Virus record (IMG/VR): IMGVR_UViG_2639762873_000006
Coordinates: 1 to 27,572 of that record
Source: a virus
Lineage: Duplodnaviria > Heunggongvirae > Uroviricota > Caudoviricetes
DNA: 27,572 nt
Reading direction: 5' to 3' (one strand)
Position 1 is the stretch's first letter; each line of letters starts with the position of its first letter. Positions 2,938 to 15,000 of this stretch are shown here, piece after piece. The notes under the pieces were generated by a model, which worked only from the letters and a program-made list of their open reading frames with translations, was not told the DNA's origin and ran no database searches. The position numbers were made by a program, and so were the translations under genes.

Positions 2938-3147
2938 ATGTCAGAGAAACTAATTAAAGCAATCCGTAATATCACGGAATATAATATGAGTATTGAGCGT
3001 ATCATTGTTAGTACCGAAGACCAGCAACACTATTATAGTATTAATCCTTATAAGGAAACTGTAATAAAGGTAGCAGACCAATACGGCAAACCAATTGAAG
3101 GGGAAGTAGAAATACCACAAATACCGCCATTATTCGATACTAACTAA
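2938..3147 (+). CDS. hypothetical protein (69 aa)
   Basis: ORF with RBS AAGGGA; followed by an intrinsic terminator. Confidence 0.5.
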   Translation: MSEKLIKAIRNITEYNMSIERIIVSTEDQQHYYSINPYKETVIKVADQYGKPIEGEVEIPQIPPLFDTN

Positions 3148-3153
3148 TAATAT

Positions 3154-3180
3154 AGCCCACTAATAAAAGTGGGCTTTTTA
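3154..3180 (+). terminator. rho-independent terminator (AGCCCACT / AGTGGGCT stem, then TTTT)
   Basis: 8-bp perfect stem, 6-nt loop, T-run, directly after the stop at 3145-3147. Confidence 0.7.
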
Positions 3181-3198
3181 ATCTAATAAGGAAAGTAA

Positions 3199-3672
3199 AT
3201 GAAAATTATAAAAAACATTCCTTCACTTCCAGATGTAGAAGTGACACTAAGTAGCCGTACTAATGAAATTGTATTAGTACACAATACTAAAACTGGTCAT
3301 ACAGTAGTAGAGAATAATGATTCATGGTATGAGGGAAACACCGATAAAAAATCACATTGGGGTGATCATATCGATGATGCAGCAGCTTTTCATAGCTTCG
3401 CACAGAATCGCTGTACTAATCCCACTACTAAACCAGATCAAATTAGTGATTTAGCATTAGGTACGTTTTGCTTTCATAATGTATTAGAAGAAGATCTTGT
3501 ATTTGAAAACACTGATTACCATGCTGCAAGGTTATCCGGTATAGGTCGTGTAGTACCCACTGATTATAATAGTGTGACGGTATATGATCCAAATAATAAC
3601 CCACCAACCACTATTACAGGCGATGCAGCAGAAATTATAGTTCGCCTTCTATCAATGACAGTAACCAACTAA
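3199..3672 (+). CDS. hypothetical protein (157 aa)
   Basis: ORF with RBS AAGGAAA; no recognisable motif. Confidence 0.55.
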   Translation: MKIIKNIPSLPDVEVTLSSRTNEIVLVHNTKTGHTVVENNDSWYEGNTDKKSHWGDHIDDAAAFHSFAQNRCTNPTTKPDQISDLALGTFCFHNVLEEDLVFENTDYHAARLSGIGRVVPTDYNSVTVYDPNNNPPTTITGDAAEIIVRLLSMTVTN

Positions 3673-3678
3673 TAATCT

Positions 3679-3700
3679 AGCCCACTACTCACAGTGGGCT
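3679..3700 (+). repeat. second copy of the AGCCCACT / AGTGGGCT hairpin (different loop, no T-run)
   Basis: Same 8-bp stem as at 3154-3175 with conserved flanks (TAATAAT.TAG upstream, AATCTAA..AGGAAA downstream). Confidence 0.5.
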
Positions 3701-3725
3701 ATTCAATCTAACGAGGAAAAATATA

Positions 3726-4382
3726 ATGACAGGTAAAGAACTATTTGAAGAATTTATTATGCACGATCACCGCAAAGGACTTACATGTACTATTGATATT
3801 CGTCCTTCCAGTAAGCCGGGATTCGAACTAATCGGGGTAGGTCATTTCAATTTAGGTAAAGGTTATCGTTTCTATCTCAGCGAAGACTGCGTAGAAATCC
3901 GTGATAATCTATCCCGCTTACGTCATGAACATCGTAAAATAGTATCAGAACGGTTAGACGATCCAATAGAGGCACTAGATTCAATTATCTATTCTTCTCT
4001 ATATGGTGATTATCATGGCTGTACTAATCGTTATTTTGGCGGTGTATTAGTTCACTACGCATTAGAACTAAAATCAAAGATAACCGTAACTATATCTACT
4101 GATGAAAACTTATTGTTCAAAGATCTACCGCCAGATGTACAGGAAGAAATGAAGTATGATGTATATCTAAAAGATCGCAAACGTGTAGTAGCTTATGACT
4201 CATTACAATATAGTGATAATAAAGAATTTATCCTACAACACTATAAACCATGTGCCCCACATCCAAATCGTGTAGTATTCACAGATGGAACGGCAGAACA
4301 GCTACAAGATCAATCACCAGTACATATACCTGGCTATACTGAATACGTAACTAGCTATACTGGTAAACGCCACTTCAAGTAA
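3726..4382 (+). CDS. hypothetical protein (218 aa)
   Basis: ORF with RBS GAGGAAAA; no recognisable motif. Confidence 0.6.
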   Translation: MTGKELFEEFIMHDHRKGLTCTIDIRPSSKPGFELIGVGHFNLGKGYRFYLSEDCVEIRDNLSRLRHEHRKIVSERLDDPIEALDSIIYSSLYGDYHGCTNRYFGGVLVHYALELKSKITVTISTDENLLFKDLPPDVQEEMKYDVYLKDRKRVVAYDSLQYSDNKEFILQHYKPCAPHPNRVVFTDGTAEQLQDQSPVHIPGYTEYVTSYTGKRHFK

Positions 4383-4395
4383 TCCCATCCCCTAA

Positions 4396-4422
4396 ATACT
4401 CCTATACATGCTATAGGAGTAT
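4396..4422 (+). promoter_or_regulatory. perfect 11-bp stem hairpin whose 3' arm contains the GGAG Shine-Dalgarno of the next gene
   Basis: ATACTCCTATA catgc TATAGGAGTAT; GGAG at 4416-4419 lies in the right arm, 9 nt before the ATG at 4429. Confidence 0.4.
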
Positions 4423-4428
4423 CACACC

Positions 4429-4815
4429 ATGAATACAATCTACCTACACTTCCCTGATGGAACGTATAAGGCCATAGAAAGCACCACAGGCCGACAGGAA
4501 TCAGGATACATACCATCACGCAAGGATAAGCTAATAACCGCTCATATCATCACACAGGACGGTTACGAGCTATTCATAGATACCTATACACTAACGCTTA
4601 AGTATAAATACATTACATTAAACTACTCACGCTTCACCATAGGCCGTACTAATTACCCTATCAATGCACTAGATACATTCAGCGGTAGTGAGCTACCACA
4701 CTTAACCCGACTAAGGGAACTACGCGACGAGATCTTACAGTACCGTACCGTAGATGGTCTGCCTATCTCTTATCGTTGTGATGTAATCGTTAGTAATATG
4801 GTGATACTCAAGTAG
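4429..4815 (+). CDS. hypothetical protein (128 aa)
   Basis: ORF; its RBS is embedded in the upstream hairpin. Confidence 0.55.
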   Translation: MNTIYLHFPDGTYKAIESTTGRQESGYIPSRKDKLITAHIITQDGYELFIDTYTLTLKYKYITLNYSRFTIGRTNYPINALDTFSGSELPHLTRLRELRDEILQYRTVDGLPISYRCDVIVSNMVILK

Positions 4816-4991
4816 ATTGCATAGACAATGCATAAACAGTGAATAATAGAATGATGGTATACTTCGGTACTGATAGGTGAAACATATCAACATTATGTGC
4901 AATTTGTGCGATTTTATCGAAAAATGATGAAATAAATCAAAATAAAGGTTGACAGTCCAAAATTATCATAGGTTCTCCCAAAAATGGCAAA

Positions 4992-5013
4992 GAGGGCGAG
5001 TTTTCGCCGCGAG
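4992..5013. other. GC-rich island in an AT-rich non-coding region; candidate cos/terminase recognition element
   Basis: GAGGGCGAGTTTTCGCCGCGAG is the only GC-rich stretch in the 4816-5132 intergenic region, about 120 bp upstream of the terminase small subunit; contains a GGCGA/TCGCC hairpin and elements like those I recall from lambda cos (GGGCG, GTTTTCGC). Confidence 0.25.
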
Positions 5014-5132
5014 TTATAATAAAAATACGTGAGAAATTTTACATAAAACAAACAAATATATAGATAAAACCTATTAGTACCGAAATAGATAGAAAATACC
5101 AATCAATGGAAAATGAATAGGAATTGCATAAA

Positions 5133-5702
5133 ATGGCAAAAAATAAAGACGATGGAACCCGCTATTCCTGGCAAGAAATCGCCGACCGATTCGGCGTAGA
5201 ACATTCCACAGTATCGCGTATCTGGTCGGGGAAAGGATTAGATATTAGCTGGCCTAAGAAATTAGTAGACGACTGGTTACTAGCGAACGTAATCGAACCA
5301 ATGCGTAATGGTGATGTGAAGGGAATGATCCATAAAGCCACACTACGCAAACTAGAAGCAGAAGCAGACCTAAAAGAATTAGAACTACGACAGCAATCTG
5401 GTGAACTAATTCCGGTAGCAGTAGTACAGCAAACATTATCACAATATTTCTATCAACTACGTCAGGTACTAAGAAGTATACCGGCAGCAAGTTACGTAGA
5501 ACTATTTGAATCACAGGACGCTTTAGAATTAAAAATTAAATTACAGGACAAGATAGACCGCCAGCTAGAGGAAATAGGCGGCTATGAATATGAGGGAACA
5601 TATGAAGAACAACTACCAGAAGATGATGAAGATCCTAACGAGGGCGGCGAAGTCGATCCTACCTCCGAAGAAACAACTACCCGCAGAGTGGGTAGAGAGT
5701 AA
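5133..5702 (+). CDS. terminase small subunit (HTH DNA-binding, acidic C-terminus)
   Basis: Immediately upstream of the large terminase; helix-turn-helix-like SWQEIADRFGVEHSTVSRIW near the N-terminus; track start 5124 is TTG, so the first ATG at 5133 (RBS AGGAA) is preferred. Confidence 0.6.
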   Translation: MAKNKDDGTRYSWQEIADRFGVEHSTVSRIWSGKGLDISWPKKLVDDWLLANVIEPMRNGDVKGMIHKATLRKLEAEADLKELELRQQSGELIPVAVVQQTLSQYFYQLRQVLRSIPAASYVELFESQDALELKIKLQDKIDRQLEEIGGYEYEGTYEEQLPEDDEDPNEGGEVDPTSEETTTRRVGRE

Positions 5703-7497
5703 CCTAGTCTTCCCCGATGGCGAACTACAAGGGCAACGCGTCAAATTATTTGCCTTTCAACATAAGCCCATCAACGATATAGTTAATCCACGTGTACGTA
5801 AAGTGGTACTAATGAGTAGTGCTCAACTTCTCAAGACAACGGTACTACAGAATAGTATGTACTACTTCCTCGCCAATGATCCTAGTAACATGATATTTGG
5901 CGGTGCTACTGGTGGTACTACTAGTAAATTTAGGACTGGTAAATGGCAAGCAGTCATCGAAGCATGTTCGGTACTGAAAAATCTCGTTAGTAATAAGAAC
6001 GACAAGAACTATACGAACAATGACAAGACACAACAAAATTTAGATGGTACGTTTACCTACTTCCTGTCATTGGGTAGTAGTGCTTCACTACGTGGTCTAA
6101 CGGCCCCTCGCGTATTTTTGGATGAGATATCCAATGTCAACGCCGACGGCGAAGAAGGCAATCCCTTGAAGCTGGCAGAACAGAGAACGAAAGCATTCAG
6201 TAACCCCCTTATTATGTGCTGTTCTACTCCACTTGATGAACATGACCTGATTACCCAACAGTACGAACAAAGTAATAAACAAAAGTTTTATGTACCTTGC
6301 CCTCACTGTAACCACTCACACGAAATGGTATTTGAAAATGTTAAATTCGAATGGAAGATTATTGAAGGCGGTCGCCGTCGTATTCCTGATGCAGACACTG
6401 CAAGGCTAGAATGTCCTAAGTGTAATAATGTAATAACAGAAGCAGAACGTGTACGAATGATCCGTAGGGGTGAATGGATAGTAACAGCACCAGAAGTAAC
6501 CGATATAATGGGCTATCACATATCTAGACTCTATTCCCCTATCAACTCGATCAAATCGATTGTAGCAGACTTTGCCGAAGCACATTATACCTTTGACCTT
6601 GCATCATTCTATAACAACGTCTTAGGACTACCATATATTGATAAAGAGAATACCGACCATGATTTAGTATTATTGGAGAACCTAAGAGATAGTGAAATAG
6701 ATATTAATAATATACCCGACGATGTACTAGGGGTGGTATACGGCGTCGATCAGCAGCTCGACAGGTTGGAGGTAACTACACTAGGAGTAAGTGAGAAGAA
6801 TCTCTATGTTTTAGATCATCGCAGTATATACGCAATTGACTGTACTAAAATCGAAGCCCCAGCATGGAATAAACTAACGGCCTTTGCCAATGCACCATTG
6901 AAAACACATTCGGGTAAACCACTTAAAGTATTAGCCGGATTCGTCGATAGTAGTAATGGCAACGCAACCAGTACCGTATATCGTTATTGCAGTAACTCTA
7001 CTATCTTTAAACCTATTAAGGGTGGTACGTCTAACTCAAACCCACTATTCAAAGGTAGTACCGCTGGTGGTCACTCCCTGATTAACCTTAATGTAAACTT
7101 AGGTAAAACGAACGTTAGACAATTACTAAACCGTGCTGTATCCGATAGTGAAAATAGTAAGGAAGTACAAATACATTTCAGCCATTCATTACCAGATGAT
7201 TACTTTATTCAGATTACATCCGAGAAACGAGTGATAAAGGCTGGTGCCTGGGTATGGGTGAAAAAGGTTAGTAGTGCGAGGAATGAAACTCTCGATTGTC
7301 TTAATTACTCGCTTATATGTTTCCAGTGGTATCTATCTAAATTGGGTAGTCAACCATTCCGACAACTAAGGGAATATAACGCGAAACAAAAAGAGAAAGC
7401 AGGACTAAATAAAGAAGTAAATACAGAAGAAGCACCAACTAAGCCAACTCCAAAACGAGTAATAAGGCCGCGTAAAGGTGGTGGATTCTTTAAATAA
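5584..7497 (+). CDS. terminase large subunit, lambda gpA-like family
   Basis: 637 aa, close to lambda gpA length; N-terminal LPAEWVESN...FP motif resembles the gpA N-terminus; zinc-ribbon-like CPHC ... CPKC; C-terminal ETLDC motif. The 5' end overlaps the small subunit by about 119 nt; alternative start ATG 5602 has a GAGGGA RBS. Confidence 0.85.
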   Translation: MNMREHMKNNYQKMMKILTRAAKSILPPKKQLPAEWVESNLVFPDGELQGQRVKLFAFQHKPINDIVNPRVRKVVLMSSAQLLKTTVLQNSMYYFLANDPSNMIFGGATGGTTSKFRTGKWQAVIEACSVLKNLVSNKNDKNYTNNDKTQQNLDGTFTYFLSLGSSASLRGLTAPRVFLDEISNVNADGEEGNPLKLAEQRTKAFSNPLIMCCSTPLDEHDLITQQYEQSNKQKFYVPCPHCNHSHEMVFENVKFEWKIIEGGRRRIPDADTARLECPKCNNVITEAERVRMIRRGEWIVTAPEVTDIMGYHISRLYSPINSIKSIVADFAEAHYTFDLASFYNNVLGLPYIDKENTDHDLVLLENLRDSEIDINNIPDDVLGVVYGVDQQLDRLEVTTLGVSEKNLYVLDHRSIYAIDCTKIEAPAWNKLTAFANAPLKTHSGKPLKVLAGFVDSSNGNATSTVYRYCSNSTIFKPIKGGTSNSNPLFKGSTAGGHSLINLNVNLGKTNVRQLLNRAVSDSENSKEVQIHFSHSLPDDYFIQITSEKRVIKAGAWVWVKKVSSARNETLDCLNYSLICFQWYLSKLGSQPFRQLREYNAKQKEKAGLNKEVNTEEAPTKPTPKRVIRPRKGGGFFK

Positions 7498-7507
7498 GGA
7501 AAATAAA

Positions 7508-7999
7508 ATGGCAATAGTTCGCAAAGTAACTTTAAAAGGCGATATCTTTAAAGGCGAGACTATTACATTCGATTACCCCGCAGGGTCAGAAGTAGACTTG
7601 ATTGATCCAAACGGGGTAAAGACCTCATATACATATCCCTTCCCAGATATTGATACTAGTAACTGGGTAGCGGGTGTATGGACTGCAATTATTAACAGTA
7701 CCGTAGCATATGGTGTACAACAATTCGAAGTAATAGATCCAACTTCTAAAGCGTCAGAATATAACGACCTGATGCAAATCATCAAAGATATTGACCAGAT
7801 CATCATGGATAGAATTAAGGGCGGTGGTGTATTAAGTCAATCAATTCAAAATAAATCATTAACATATGAAAGTAGTGAAATACTTATGAAACTACGCCCT
7901 GTATATGTCAGTCGTGCAAATGATTTACTTTCGGATATGAAAGGATTCAATACTGGATGTCCTATCAAATCAATTACTACATTTAGGAGATCTCGCTAA
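7508..7999 (+). CDS. hypothetical protein between terminase and portal (163 aa)
   Basis: ORF with RBS AAGGAAA; occupies the position of lambda W but is larger and shows no similarity I can recognise. Confidence 0.5.
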   Translation: MAIVRKVTLKGDIFKGETITFDYPAGSEVDLIDPNGVKTSYTYPFPDIDTSNWVAGVWTAIINSTVAYGVQQFEVIDPTSKASEYNDLMQIIKDIDQIIMDRIKGGGVLSQSIQNKSLTYESSEILMKLRPVYVSRANDLLSDMKGFNTGCPIKSITTFRRSR

Positions 8000-9495
8000 T
8001 GTTCGGATGGAATAAAAAGAAAGTAGAAGAACCAAAACAAAAAGTATTAGTACAGAAGCCAGTGAAGCTAATGAAGAATAACCCGATGAAACGTGCAATG
8101 ACTTCCCTTAATTTGGGATCATCTAGCCCTGTTATCTCATTTGGCTTCACTGGCGGTAATCAGGCTGGCAATATTAACGCCATCATTAACCGTAATCTAC
8201 CTGTTATGGTTGCAGTAAGTCGTGAACTCTCAATTAAGAACGGTATTGTAAAGAAATATGTCAGTACGAATAGTGCGGGTGTAACGGGTGCAGATGGCCT
8301 ATATATTCGTCCTTGTACCCATAGCTCCGACGACGAACAAGTTAACCAGTCAATCGATAAACAGATTGAAGATGCATTCTATGCATGGGCCGAAGATCCT
8401 AAAGCGTTTTCCCGCTGCGGTACTCTAGATATCAGTACCTTCCAACGTCTGGTAGAACGTACTCGATCAGTAGATGGTGATTGTTTCATTCGCGTTCACA
8501 GTAAGCCAGGAGAGCTACCACAGATTGAGATTATCGATTCTATGCGTATCTCGACCTATGAGAACCAATTACTACCGTCGGGAAACTTTATCAGCAATGG
8601 TATTGAATTTGATATCAATACAAACCGTCCTGTAGCGTACTGGGTAACACGTTATAACCCCATCATGTACAACTATATGATTGGTGAGCGTGAGCGAGTA
8701 CCAGCAGACGAGATCCTACACCTATTCCAGCAGGACTACCCAACACAGCAACGCGGTATTCCAGATGTGCATTCCGGTACTGAAAAGTTAAAAGAGTTAG
8801 AGGAATTTATGGCGGCGGCAATTACTTCCCGTAAGGTTGCAGCGTCCGCAATGGCCTTTATCACTAATCCAGATAGTGACGATGTACAGCTACTGACTGA
8901 TGACAGTGTATCATACTATGATCAGGACTATCTAAATCCGGCTGCAATCGTAGAACTACAGGCAGGTCAGGATATTAAAACAGTAAACCCATCTCAGACT
9001 ACCGACGGTATTCAGGAGTTTATTGATAACCAAATGATGATGATTGCAATGGGATTAGATATTACAAAACAATCTCTAACTTCTGATACTAGTAATGCTT
9101 CATTCAGTGCTGCAAAGTTAACTGATAAATTACAGCAATCAACATTTAAAAGCCGTACTAATGCTTTAATTGTATCTGTACTAAAACCTCTTTATATTGC
9201 ATGGTTAAAATCTGCAATGCTAAATAGTAGTACATTAAGCAATTTAAATTTTAGTGATTTTAATAAATTGACTCATGCACAATATGTACAGACGCGTCAA
9301 ATCTCCCTAGATCCATATAAAGACCTTCAAACCGAAGTATTGGCAATTGATAACGGTTTAAAGAGTAAGGCAATGGTAATTTCGGAGATGGGATACGATC
9401 CGGTTATTGTCATGGAAGAAATCAACAAGGAAAATAAAGAAAATGGAATTGAACAAGAACCAGACGAGGGCGATCAATCTAACACAAATCAATAA
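7999..9495 (+). CDS. portal protein
   Basis: 498-aa ORF immediately after the terminase module, strong AGGAG RBS, acidic C-terminal tail; assignment is by position and size, not by a recognised motif. Confidence 0.65.
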   Translation: MFGWNKKKVEEPKQKVLVQKPVKLMKNNPMKRAMTSLNLGSSSPVISFGFTGGNQAGNINAIINRNLPVMVAVSRELSIKNGIVKKYVSTNSAGVTGADGLYIRPCTHSSDDEQVNQSIDKQIEDAFYAWAEDPKAFSRCGTLDISTFQRLVERTRSVDGDCFIRVHSKPGELPQIEIIDSMRISTYENQLLPSGNFISNGIEFDINTNRPVAYWVTRYNPIMYNYMIGERERVPADEILHLFQQDYPTQQRGIPDVHSGTEKLKELEEFMAAAITSRKVAASAMAFITNPDSDDVQLLTDDSVSYYDQDYLNPAAIVELQAGQDIKTVNPSQTTDGIQEFIDNQMMMIAMGLDITKQSLTSDTSNASFSAAKLTDKLQQSTFKSRTNALIVSVLKPLYIAWLKSAMLNSSTLSNLNFSDFNKLTHAQYVQTRQISLDPYKDLQTEVLAIDNGLKSKAMVISEMGYDPVIVMEEINKENKENGIEQEPDEGDQSNTNQ

Positions 9496-11640: not shown

Positions 11641-12033
11641 ATGAATCTTCTAACTCAAGTACAGAAAACATTAAGAGACAGTTTAAATAATATCATCCCA
11701 ATTCGCAAAGCAATGAATATTGCAGCAGGTCGTGATCTCTTTATTCTCGTTTCAACCAATCAAACCTACCAATCAGTAAACTATAATAATCAAAATCAAA
11801 TGGGTAATTTTACCTTTCAATTCCTATTAGTACCAGAACCTTCAATTACATTACCCGCTGATACCTTCGGTACTATTTTTGATTACTTCCGTACTAATAC
11901 GATCATGGAATTTGGTAATAATGGCGTACAACTCCATAGCTATGACGTAGCTGACAGTGAACTAGTAACTGATCCGTCAACTGGTTATCAATCGCTATCT
12001 TTTGCAATAAATATTGTAGCAACTTTAAAATAA
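11641..12033 (+). CDS. putative tail terminator/neck protein (U-like by position)
   Basis: 130 aa starting at ATG 11641 (overlaps the upstream stop); sits where a tail terminator is expected; similarity to lambda U is weak. Confidence 0.35.
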   Translation: MNLLTQVQKTLRDSLNNIIPIRKAMNIAAGRDLFILVSTNQTYQSVNYNNQNQMGNFTFQFLLVPEPSITLPADTFGTIFDYFRTNTIMEFGNNGVQLHSYDVADSELVTDPSTGYQSLSFAINIVATLK

Positions 12034-12046
12034 AAGGAATTAAAAG

Positions 12047-15000
12047 ATGGCAGATCAAATTTTTACAGGGAGTGGTTTTAAATTATTTTATAATGACGAT
12101 ACCGCAAACCGTATCCCCGATAACGCAGGGAACGAGCTAGTAAATGAATTGGCGGCTATGCCTTCATTCGGTATTGATAGCCAAGTACAAACTATTGAAG
12201 TATATAACAGTGAATTTTCAGAGAAACTACTCGCAGAACAGAACGTAAACGATATTGATATTGTTGTTAACTACGTACCAGATTGCACCGCTCACGCATT
12301 TTTAGATCAAGCGACCGAAGATCAGACCGAGTTCCAGCTAACACTACAGTACGCCGTAACTGATGGTATCATCTCCTACAGTATGGTGAATGGTATGATT
12401 AGTTCCGCTCGCCTTGCTGGTGATAAAGACTCAGTAGTTACTAAATCATATACCTTTACCCCTACCGACGTTCTAGTACGTGATGGACAGGCACCATTGA
12501 GTACCGGACTAGTTGTAGGATCATATGGCGTAGGTAGTAACGGCGTAGACGTACCACAGTACGAACCACAGTTACCAAATGGCAACAGTTTTATCAAAGT
12601 ACCAGCAGCACGCAATGATAACCCAGCTAGTGCGGATCTAATGGGTATTGGTCTTATCGATTCCGGTACATTCTCCAGTATTGCAATGACTAAATCCGGT
12701 ACATTGGCAATCTATGCAAAGAACCAGAATACAGCATGGACGCGTATACTTACTGCAACTCAGATTAGTGATCAGTATGTACCACTTACGCGTAAGGTTA
12801 ATGGTAAAGCACTAAATGCAGATATTACTATTACTAAAGTAGATGTAGGACTAGGTAACGTAACTAATGATGCACAATTGAAAATAGCTAGTAACCTTTC
12901 TGATTTAAATAACGTCAACACAGCCCGTACTAACTTAAAAGTAGCTCGTTTTGAAGAAACTAGACCAGACCTAAGTACAATTTATTCTACTGATGATAAG
13001 TCTGGATATAAAGTAGTAGTACGTAGTGATGGCTATTGGGGTGCAATGAATGCAGACGGCACAGTCACTAAAGGTCTATCGATTGACATGGGCGGTACTG
13101 GTGCAAATACATTAGCACAAGCTCAAGCTAATCTAGGTATTGTAACTAGTGCGGCACAGGATGGAAAATATCTAGCTAAGGCAAGTAACCTTTCTGATTT
13201 ACCAAGTAAACCAACAGCCCGTACTAACTTAGGATTAGGTACAGCAGCTACATATAATGTAAGTAGTTCCGGTGCAAACGTTCCATTAATGAGTAGTGCA
13301 AATACGTGGACTGGAATACAATATTTTGGCAATGCACAATTTACATCTACCTATGTTAACCCGTTATTGATTCATAGTCCTACACCTACAATCTATTTGA
13401 AAGATACAGATACAAACGGCTTAGGGATGAAATTAATTGCAGATGGTAGTGTATTCCGTATGCAAGATGATACCTCCGCTGAAACGTGGGCTTTTTCTTA
13501 TAATTACAGTACGAAAGTAGTTACAATGCCATCCTTGCAACTTGCAACTAAACTACAAGTAGCAGAAGGCGGTACGGGTGCAACAAATTGGAAACAGGCA
13601 GCATATAACCTTAACGTTATGCCATATAACCGCAATAGTTTAACTGCAAGTGATAATCTCAATAATTTTGGTGGTCTTAATGCTGGTGTATATTTTTGTG
13701 CTTCAAGTGCTTATGCAACCCCTGCAAATAACTACCCAGAAGCTAACGCAGGTACAGTAATAGTTTATCAGAACGCCGCAAATAGTAGTGATGGTTGTAC
13801 ACAATTTTACTATCCATTCAATACTAACAAAGCATATAAACGTATTCTAAGATTTACCAGTCCAACTACTTCTACGTGGTCATCATGGGCAGAGATCCTA
13901 ACCTCCGAACATATTACCCCCGGTAATATCCCTCGTTTAAATGGTGGTAATACGTGGAATGGTAACCAATCTATTGATACTGGTTATCTAACACTAGGTT
14001 TAAAAAATACCAATGCAACCGCATTTGAAATTGGTAGCCAAACTACAAAAAACTCAGCTTATATTGACTTCCATACAAGCGGTTTAACTAATGACTATGA
14101 TACACGTATTATTGCAGAAACTACTACATCCACTGCAAATGGACAAGGTAAATTATCCTTCGTTGGTGGTGAGTTTAACTTTAATAATAATATTACAGGT
14201 CAGGGAAATATTACGGCTAATGCCTTTATCTCTAAAACTGTAGTTAGTGCAACTGGTGCTATCACTGGTGCAAGCCTCAATACTGGATCTGGTGCTATCA
14301 CTGGTGGTGCAATTAGCGGTACTACATTGACTACAACAGGAGCGGCGAAAGTAGGTAGTATTGATTCTACTGGTGGTCTATATGGGACTGGTGTAGTACA
14401 GGCAGATTCAGCCACTACTGGTACTTATATTAGAATGGGTAATGGTACAACTGATAACTATATCACAAGTAACAACTTCCCAGCAGGCGGTACACAACGC
14501 TATCTACAGTTCAAGAATGACGGTACTGTTAGAATCTCCGACCAGTTGATTATGCACAATAACTTAGATGCAAGTGGTAGCGACTTCCAAGTTACGGCTA
14601 ATAACTTCCGTATAGTAACTGGTGGTAATGGTCTACAGATCAAAAACAATTCAGGATCTGTATCATCTTATCTATCTGGCATTGGGTCTACTAACGTTCG
14701 CGAATGGTACATAGGTAAAGGTGGATCAGGTAAAGGGATTGCATGGTGGAACGATATGTCAGGCGGTCACGGTGTTGATTTAGGGGCAGATGGTAACATC
14801 ACATTAAATACCCTTGCCAGTACCGGAAACGTTAACATACGCGGTACTATGTCAACTACTGGTAGATTATCCGTAACAGGTGATGTAACAGCTTCCGGTA
14901 TAGTTAGAGCTAATACTACTTTTTCAGTTAATGGTACTAGTGGAACTTCTAACGCCCACCTATGGTACTACGGTCACACTGGAGCAAGTCGCGGCGTAAT

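Follow-up and report, generated by a model that had tools for sequence, protein, structure and literature searches.

How is a gene expressed when its ribosome-binding site is folded into a stable hairpin? The question arises for a 27,572-nucleotide (nt) stretch of DNA from a virus of the Caudoviricetes (IMG/VR record IMGVR_UViG_2639762873_000006, positions 1 to 27,572), here called the window, which belongs to an element of ∼32.9 kb integrated in the yegD gene of Escherichia coli (the yegD element). An open reading frame (ORF) for a 128-amino-acid (128-aa) protein of unknown function (4429–4815, plus strand) has its translation start under an inverted repeat at 4396–4422 that covers its Shine–Dalgarno (SD) sequence. 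We conclude that the hairpin very probably masks this SD. Somewhat favoured, in our view, is the fuller reading that the mask is part of a late-promoter/hairpin switch like those of T4-like phages, such that read-through messages would stay silent and messages initiated at a promoter in the 5′ arm would be translated.

The 5′ arm of the repeat (ATACTCCTATA, 4396–4406, plus strand) holds the anti-SD sequence CUCC, the loop (CATGC, 4407–4411) is variable in length and sequence among homologs, and the 3′ arm (TATAGGAGTAT, 4412–4422) holds the SD, GGAG, at 4416–4419. In a repeat search the arms are 100% complementary and give a stem of 11 perfect base pairs, four of them G–C, closed by a loop of 5 nt. 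The stem is followed by CACACC and then by the ATG at 4429–4431, which leaves 9 nt between GGAG and the start codon. This is the arrangement that the first-pass annotation of the DNA had described, and the folding of RNA 4380–4440 that it proposed returns exactly the same 11 bp hairpin, with a minimum free energy of −12.9 kcal/mol (z = −4.70); none of 200 dinucleotide shuffles is as stable. When the whole window was shuffled in the same manner (200 dinucleotide shuffles), perfect hairpins with stems of 11 bp or more and loops of 3–8 nt appeared at a rate of 0.04 per shuffle. The arm sequence alone is not over-represented within the window, and the significance of the hairpin therefore rests on the inverted repeat, its placement over the SD and its conservation.

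Homologous loci were gathered via the 128-aa protein and not via the hairpin, from six IMG/VR loci, 18 protein clusters and ten further contigs, and amount to 13 distinct loci or sequences with 41–100% protein identity. The hairpin lies directly before the ATG of the 128-aa gene in all 13. Most copies have the arms TACTCCTAT / ATAGGAGTA, while the loops range from 3 to 8 nt (CATGC, ACATGCA, CAG, ATGGC, ACGAC, CACGT, TACACC, ATACAC and CAACACGT). Stems are of 8–12 bp, with energies between −7.8 and −12.9 kcal/mol, the latter being that of the window copy; the shortest, in locus L042, has 8 pairs only. In L043 a C-to-T change turns one pair into U·G, a wobble that exists in the plus-strand RNA only. 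The most distant copy, L039 (41–43% protein identity), reads AAATACCTCATA-CAACACGT-TATGAGGTATTT; its SD has changed from AGGAG to GAGG and its 5′ arm has changed in step from CTCCT to CCTCA, in a compensatory manner. Over the alignment of all 13, 85.7% of the cells are paired and two pairs are changed on both sides, values that are reached by one of 500 shuffles, and RNAalifold independently finds the same core of nine pairs. MAFFT misaligns the inner 3′ arm of L039, such that the pair counts for the inner helix understate this copy; its 12 bp stem was checked directly. The hairpin is thus real, and chance is excluded by its conservation.

In transcripts that start 60 nt upstream, the mean probability that the SD is unpaired is 0.000–0.001 in all 13 homologs. 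From the work of de Smit and van Duin on hairpin stability and translation, a stem of −8 to −13 kcal/mol over an SD should reportedly cut translation by orders of magnitude. No Rfam covariance model matches the region overlapping 4380–4440 at E-values up to 5.

The same comparison tells which gene the hairpin serves. Upstream of it in the window is an ORF for a 218-aa protein (3726–4382, plus strand) with its TAA stop at 4380–4382, and the stem could in principle be a 3′-end structure of this gene, either a terminator or a stabilizer against exonucleases, with the SD overlap being incidental. The stem starts 13 nt after this stop codon, hairpins are also found after several further genes within the first 4 kb of the window, and a run of seven T follows the stem of L039. 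We nevertheless regard a 3′-end structure as highly unlikely. A terminator would combine a G+C-rich stem with a U-tract, whereas no U-tract is present in the window or in 12 of the 13 homologs, where CACACC, ACCCA and similar sequences follow the stem, and the terminator scan is silent at this position. In addition, the upstream context varies between loci: five or more different genes are found upstream, and the same gene is always found downstream. In L001 and L050, which encode an identical or near-identical protein, the ORFs of 3199–4382 are absent at this position and the hairpin and its 5′ flank directly follow the terminator of the preceding gene. As the hairpin stays with the downstream gene while its upstream context changes, it belongs to the downstream gene and not to the upstream one. 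Most relatives also carry a separate, bona fide intrinsic terminator (for example AGCCCACT...AGTGGGCTTTTTT) that ends 10–15 nt before the hairpin and its 5′ flank. No such terminator lies between the upstream ORF and the hairpin in the window, L039, L040 and L041, and transcripts of the 3726–4382 ORF should therefore run into the hairpin.

The first-pass annotation had also raised the possibility of a processing site. RNase III sites in intercistronic positions are known from T7-like phages, and a perfect duplex in such a position would agree with cleavage by RNase III or a similar enzyme separating the upstream and downstream messages. RNase III substrates typically have ∼20 bp or more, and the stem, with 11 bp in the window and 8–12 bp in the homologs, is short for this purpose. 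Together with the silence of Rfam, and because processing gives no reason for the 5′ arm to follow changes in the SD, this leaves the suggestion unsupported and such a role extremely unlikely.

An operator poses a different challenge, as the two arms are nearly invariant across the homologs, which suggests a sequence-specific site, and the palindrome heads the packaging and morphogenesis genes. It might in that case act in the DNA as a binding site for a dimeric protein, an activator or repressor of late genes, and not as an RNA structure. The near-invariance of the arms is in part explained by the need of the 3′ arm to remain an SD. Close homologs differ in their half-site spacer, which measures 3–8 nt, and a dimer of fixed geometry would not easily accommodate such variation; the T opposite G in L043 pairs as a wobble in plus-strand RNA, whereas at a DNA site it would break the symmetry; and the arms of L039 change together with the SD. 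Furthermore, ATAGGAGTA serves as a plain ribosome-binding context, with neither hairpin nor partner arm, before genes 20595 and 27279 and before one gene in the left arm of the element. We consider an operator very unlikely.

If the SD is masked, how is the gene translated? It is clearly under selection, as seen from its 18 protein clusters and a confident AlphaFold2 model (pLDDT 88.8), and some route round the stem is therefore needed. The conserved sequence at the 5′ side of the hairpin suggests which one. The motif TAAATAC is invariant in all 13 homologous loci and is preceded by C in 12 of them and by A in L002, giving TATAAATA. Its residues T5–A7 are never needed for pairing and A8 is paired in only three of the 13 copies, while the 4 nt upstream of the motif, the loop and the spacer between SD and ATG are variable in the alignment. 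The late promoter of phage T4 is the 8-mer TATAAATA at −13 to −6, which works without a −35 element, and the late-promoter consensus of phage Aeh1 is CTAAATA, starting at −12 (PMC1524935). In the window CTAAATA occupies 4392–4398 (plus strand) and overlaps the first 3 nt of the 5′ arm. Set against the published consensus, its A4398 would be −6, the motif would span −12 to −6 and A4404 would be the predicted +1. At the level of sequence the geometry is that of a T4 late promoter, with the motif inside −13 to −6 and the predicted start within the 5′ strand. A transcript from A4404 retains only AUA, the last 3 nt of this strand, and in such short forms the mean probability of an unpaired SD is 0.04–0.72 among the 13 homologs.

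The surroundings leave little room for a promoter of the ordinary type. A scan for σ70 consensus promoters (−35/−10 with 16–18 bp spacing) found none on the plus strand from 3753 to 5107, and the flanks where a −35 element would sit are not conserved. In most relatives the distance from the terminator to the ATG is about 45 nt, which would be too small for a −35/−10 promoter and enough for an 8 bp late promoter of the T4 type. A scan for MotA-box middle promoters gave one match, about the chance level. A likeness to T7-type promoters (AATAC...TATAGGAG) was also considered and rejected, as the would-be specificity region coincides with the loop, and close homologs differ in both the length and the sequence of this loop; among the window ORFs no candidate gene for a phage RNA polymerase was noted, although not all large ORFs were scanned.

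We therefore propose that repression is most likely bypassed by an alternative transcript start and not by melting of the stem. Transcripts that enter from upstream, which would be those of the 3726–4382 ORF in the window and read-through of the preceding terminator in most relatives, would carry both arms, fold the stem, bury the SD and be essentially untranslatable. CTAAATA would act as a −35-independent late-type promoter of the T4 kind, with initiation ∼6 nt downstream of the motif, near A4404, giving an mRNA with a leader of ∼25 nt that lacks the anti-SD arm and has a free SD. The 128-aa protein would then be made only while this promoter is active. The motif might be read by an unrecognized factor encoded by the element or by gp55, the late σ factor of T4, supplied by a co-infecting T4-like phage. 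The first-pass annotation had pictured a stem that could repress translation until the structure is opened. Sequestration of the SD is borne out by the conservation, the compensatory pairs and the closed SD of the long forms, while for its relief the anatomy of the locus points to a start that omits the 5′ arm.

This anatomy is nearly identical to that of established cases in T4. For genes e, soc and 49, I-TevI, -II and -III, segB and mobE of Aeh1, early and middle read-through transcripts fold and are not translated (with a reduction of ∼100-fold for gene e), and late transcripts without the 5′ strand are translated (PMC3014915, PMC2988022). The T4 mRNAs listed as carrying an inhibitory structure where translation starts include that of gene 49 (PMC3014915). 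We read the regions upstream of known cases within T4 positions 1–50,000. A late promoter lies within or at the 5′ arm, and the 3′ arm contains the SD or the AUG, for gene 49 (ATAATAAATACCCTTATC-tatttaa-GGTAAGGGTTTATTATG, or in its longer form aaaATAATAAATACCCTTATCtatttaaGGTAAGGGTTTATTATG), for I-TevII (CCTCGTATAAATAtgaATACGAGG, longer form CCTCGTATAAATAtgaATACGAGGtgaaacgATG) and for soc (TATAAATAatcATGTAATTtaaataaaggagAATTACATG). The order of elements in gene 49, which encodes endonuclease VII, is nearly superimposable on ours: T4 has ATAAATAC-CCTTATC-loop-GGTAAGG-GTTTATT-ATG and the window has CTAAATAC-TCCTATA-loop-TATAGGA-GTATcacaccATG. In both, the first bases of the 5′ arm contain the end of the promoter motif, the anti-SD comes next, the SD is in the 3′ arm and the ATG comes a few nucleotides later. 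The likeness extends to L039, where pairing continues over AAATAC/GTATTT.

The differences from T4 are equally clear. The gene 49 and window sequences are non-homologous, their downstream proteins are unrelated and the motif here is CTAAATA and not (T/A)ATAAATA. As a 7-mer it is identical to the late-promoter consensus of Aeh1, although the host here is E. coli. The other T4 and Aeh1 genes share the logic of a folded long transcript and a translated late one, but they reside in genomes of virulent T4-like phages for which an early-to-late cascade has been established by experiment, whereas the present case is an integrated element with a lambda-type terminase and portal, a siphovirus-like tail and a serine recombinase. 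T4 encodes gp55, gp33 and gp45, and no gp55 was detected in the yegD element.

The hairpin also occurs outside the family of the 128-aa gene. An IMG/VR scan for the arms alone (TACTCCTAT-N1-9-ATAGGAGTA) returned 32 loci. TAAA stands directly 5′ of the 5′ arm in 13 of the 18 distinct orientations that have an ATG 4–12 nt after the 3′ arm, compared with one of the 32 others (p ∼3e-7); a conservative recount gives 9/14 compared with 0/31 (p ∼2e-6). Eight of these 13 TAAA-flanked cassettes precede genes that are unrelated to the 128-aa protein. In L031 the cassette lies between a tail-sheath gene and genes for a homing endonuclease and a T4-type portal; in L034 a clamp-loader gene is followed further on by the cassette and a GIY-YIG-like gene; and in L038 it lies between a head–tail adaptor gene and an endonuclease-like gene homologous to that of L034, which is followed by a sheath stabilizer. 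These three cassettes have arms identical to those of the window and stand before homing-endonuclease-like genes, and their neighbouring genes are clearly of the T4 type. A T4-like origin is less firmly indicated for L023 and its relative L022, where a DNA polymerase gene is found, for L012, where a ribonucleotide reductase gene is found, and for L009, where the gene after the cassette has no known function. In L008 the cassette lies in a further element that has a serine integrase, together with a large terminase of the gpA type. At the promoter position of the cassette TATAAATA, CATAAATA and CTAAATA are all seen, and of the homologous downstream genes of L034 and L038 one has TATAAATA and the other CTAAATA. 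Across 596 Gb of species-representative genomes of bacteria, the pattern extended with TAAA turns up a single time. The cassette is thus a unit that recurs and is associated with viruses.

The strongest competitor of the promoter-bypass model accepts the mask and dispenses with the promoter. Only long transcripts would exist, and either expression would be permanently very low, or the stem would be opened by a factor that binds the conserved single-stranded CUAAA, or ribosomes would bind there on standby. This is possible, if on the whole unlikely. It accounts for a hairpin that is conserved and covarying, for the long transcripts that must exist where no terminator precedes the hairpin (the window, L039, L040 and L041), for the failure to find an encoded gp55-like factor and for the conserved unpaired 5′ flank, which could bind a protein or a ribosome. 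There is a precedent of a general kind in phage Mu, in which the Com protein activates translation of mom by opening a hairpin. In both cases the translation start is concealed by a hairpin, immediately 5′ of which there is a conserved single-stranded sequence. A Com-like zinc-finger protein was not identified in the yegD element, and Pfam and PHROG scans of the left-arm proteins and the window proteins covered gave no candidate for an RNA-binding activator. The stop codon of the upstream ORF is 13 nt before the stem, such that a terminating ribosome would barely reach it. A mask without a promoter, including one of the Com type, leaves unexplained why the TAAA flank accompanies the same arms before unrelated genes, among them those of T4-type contigs, where TATAAATA is the established late promoter. 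Nor does it explain why a terminator lies 10–15 nt upstream in most relatives, or why TAAATA is found at a similar spacing before five other genes that have no hairpin.

That spacing is seen in a positional scan of the element, in which six of the 29 copies of TAAATA end 28–38 nt before a start codon, compared with an expected 0.4–1.4 (p = 4e-6 to 3e-3). The genes concerned are 4429, 12047, 19014, 25160, 25946 and the first gene after the integrase. Apart from that of gene 4429, the motifs, extended by their preceding bases, are at 12006–12013 (gene 12047), 18978–18985 (gene 19014), 25115–25121 (gene 25160), 25903–25910 (gene 25946) and about 6453–6459 of L049, the contig with the left end of the element (first gene after the integrase). 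The one at 18978, before gene 19014, is a perfect TATAAATA that comes right behind a terminator. A further perfect TATAAATA lies within the 128-aa ORF itself (4603–4610, plus strand), at codons Tyr59–Lys60–Tyr61 (TAT AAA TAC) of the nearly invariant peptide LKYKYITL. The 8-mer is kept in 11 of the 13 distinct homologs, including L039 with its 41% identity, whereas synonymous sites around it vary. This copy may act as a second, embedded late-type promoter facing the cos/terS region.

Several observations weigh against the promoter-bypass model. A phmmer search with T4 gp55 against all ORFs of the ∼32.9 kb element did not detect a homolog (best E-value 0.3), such that for gp55, the late factor tested, the element departs from the T4 situation in which the late factors are encoded by the same genome. 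PHROG and Pfam found no regulator or σ-like family in the left-arm proteins or the scanned window proteins, gp33 and gp45 not having been searched individually. CTAAATA departs from the TATAAATA consensus of T4 itself, and C at −12 is rare in RB69, RB43, RB49 and 44RR, the four other T4-like phages compared (PMC1524935). TAAATA as such is not in excess once the A-rich composition is considered, and in intergenic DNA TATAAT is equally enriched; the distance window of 28–38 nt was picked after the data had been seen. The covariation rests on one divergent sequence, L039, with the arms of the other copies being nearly invariant. The SD of the short form still pairs weakly with CUUCC in codons 7–9 on folding. 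Finally, with a terminator already upstream in most relatives the need for a mask becomes less obvious, unless read-through or antitermination is common.

The element in which the locus resides provides an unusual genomic context. The window is identical to contig JWKM01000004 of the NCBI assembly GCA_000812785.1. The insertion in yegD is flanked on one side by mdtA/B, ibsA, yegL, pphC, yegI and a truncated yegD and on the other by the rest of yegD, alkA, yegE, udk, dcd and asmA. The element, with 38.8% GC, extends over L049 4705–10000 and window 1–27572 and has a 532-aa serine recombinase at its left end. Its lambda-type genes for head, tail and lysis form a complete set, the tail being siphovirus-like; in the window these include a small terminase (5133–5702) and a large terminase (5584–7497), both lambda-type, a portal, a protease–capsid fusion, tail and lysis genes. 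Pfam and PHROG scans of the left-arm proteins and the window proteins covered revealed no recognizable replication, repressor, σ or regulatory genes. The element is rare, being present in two of 5,426 complete E. coli genomes. A near-identity DNA search with 3000–8000 against 50,697 phage records gave nothing, and the closest large terminase in phage records is 37% identical.

Among cultured phages the virion module has a single relative, namely the first 26.3 kb in the record of Escherichia phage DCP80 (PQ671644, L056), which is labelled Tevenvirinae. This module is syntenic with the window, with a large terminase (37%), portal, capsid, tail tube (46%), tape measure, tail tip, lysozyme and small terminase, and it carries an endonuclease VII gene. 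A perfect TATAAATA precedes four of its genes, at 13211 and 13777 shortly after terminator-like hairpins and also at 1287 and 5789. The rest of the record is T4-like, with motA, gp33, the sliding clamp (gp45), gp44 and rIIA. Because this T4-like part has inverted duplications, in which rIIA, the exonuclease subunits and spackle each occur twice, the record probably joins a T4-like phage and a separate small entity in a chimeric assembly. The module has no relative in other phage records, in complete E. coli genomes or in IMG/VR.

A bolder reading would be that the whole yegD element is wired to T4-like late machinery that it does not encode, such that its late-type promoters fire only with gp55, gp33 and gp45 of a co-infecting T-even-like phage. 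In that case it would act as a satellite or hitch-hiker, or as a sensor directed against T-even phages, and the hairpin would silence the first gene before the terminase genes on read-through in the prophage state. Hints in this direction are TAAATA at 28–38 nt before six genes, the conserved TATAAATA within the 128-aa ORF and the DCP80 module, with its perfect TATAAATA motifs, having been assembled with T4-like sequences. We nonetheless judge such dependence improbable. If true, it would be a new kind of dependence between phages.

Control by a hairpin that hides a ribosome-binding site is textbook knowledge, and the present locus adds a well conserved example with covariation, the identical arms of which recur in many uncultured phages. 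We describe it as a new example of a known device, in which a promoter within the 5′ arm allows the mask to be bypassed. What is unusual is its genomic setting: a T4-style cassette in an integrated E. coli element that is rare, carries lambda-type virion genes and has no detectable late σ factor of the T4 type. Should the motif work as a promoter, either a factor with gp55-like specificity has gone unrecognized in an element of the temperate type, or its late genes depend on a co-infecting T-even phage.

The 128-aa gene is the last before a 308 bp gap and terS/terL, and in the homologous loci it is likewise always just before a non-coding gap and terS/terL. Despite its confident AlphaFold2 model, the protein has no Pfam, PHROG or significant fold match, and no homolog came up when species-representative bacterial genomes were scanned with the protein. 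As a practical matter, the ORF is missing from the annotation of one RefSeq genome although intact there: in NZ_CM135810.1 (L053) it occupies 17243–17629 with one amino acid different, and PGAP places no coding sequence between the 218-aa gene and terS. In L002 a small deletion near codon 6, at about 4990–5010, shifts the frame of the homolog, which is likely a pseudogene; the hairpin is kept there and TATAAATA replaces CTAAATA.

Upstream of the 218-aa ORF is an ORF for a 157-aa protein (3199–3672); neither protein has a Pfam or PHROG match. Each of the two ORFs is preceded by a near-repeat, TAAT-(A)TAGCCCACT-loop-AGTGGGCT-(T)AATCTAA-AGGAAA, at 3148–3198 and 3673–3725. They look like inserted cassettes of the moron type, since both are absent at this position in L001 and L050. 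Other hairpins that follow genes in the first 4 kb are at 298–338, 1491–1523, 3154–3175 and 3678–3701. The first of these has 16 nt arms with 94% complementarity, is intergenic and lacks a U-tract. That at 1491–1523 is a perfect 12 bp stem (AATAGCTACTAC/GTAGTAGCTATT), also intergenic and without a U-tract; its sequence is conserved in L040, L041, L047 and L050, where TAAATA follows at a variable distance.

Elsewhere in the element, the phage lysozyme gene at 25453–25905 (minus strand) is the sole clear minus-strand gene of the window and abuts 25946–26383 (plus strand), a gene for a SegE-like GIY-YIG endonuclease that is preceded by CATAAATA. An HNH endonuclease gene is found at L049 7074–7679. 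The 481 bp of non-coding DNA at L049 8244–8724 contain iteron-like repeated units (TTAGCCC, ATGGGCTA and ATTGGGAT) and are a candidate for the element's replication origin. At L049 9760–10000, immediately before window position 1, a 60-aa gene on the minus strand and the first gene of the window diverge from a regulatory region that holds palindromes (TTGACGTTAGATACTAATGATCCTAGTATCAGTGGTGTCAA) and one MotA-box-like site (TTTGCTTCA-N12-TACACT).

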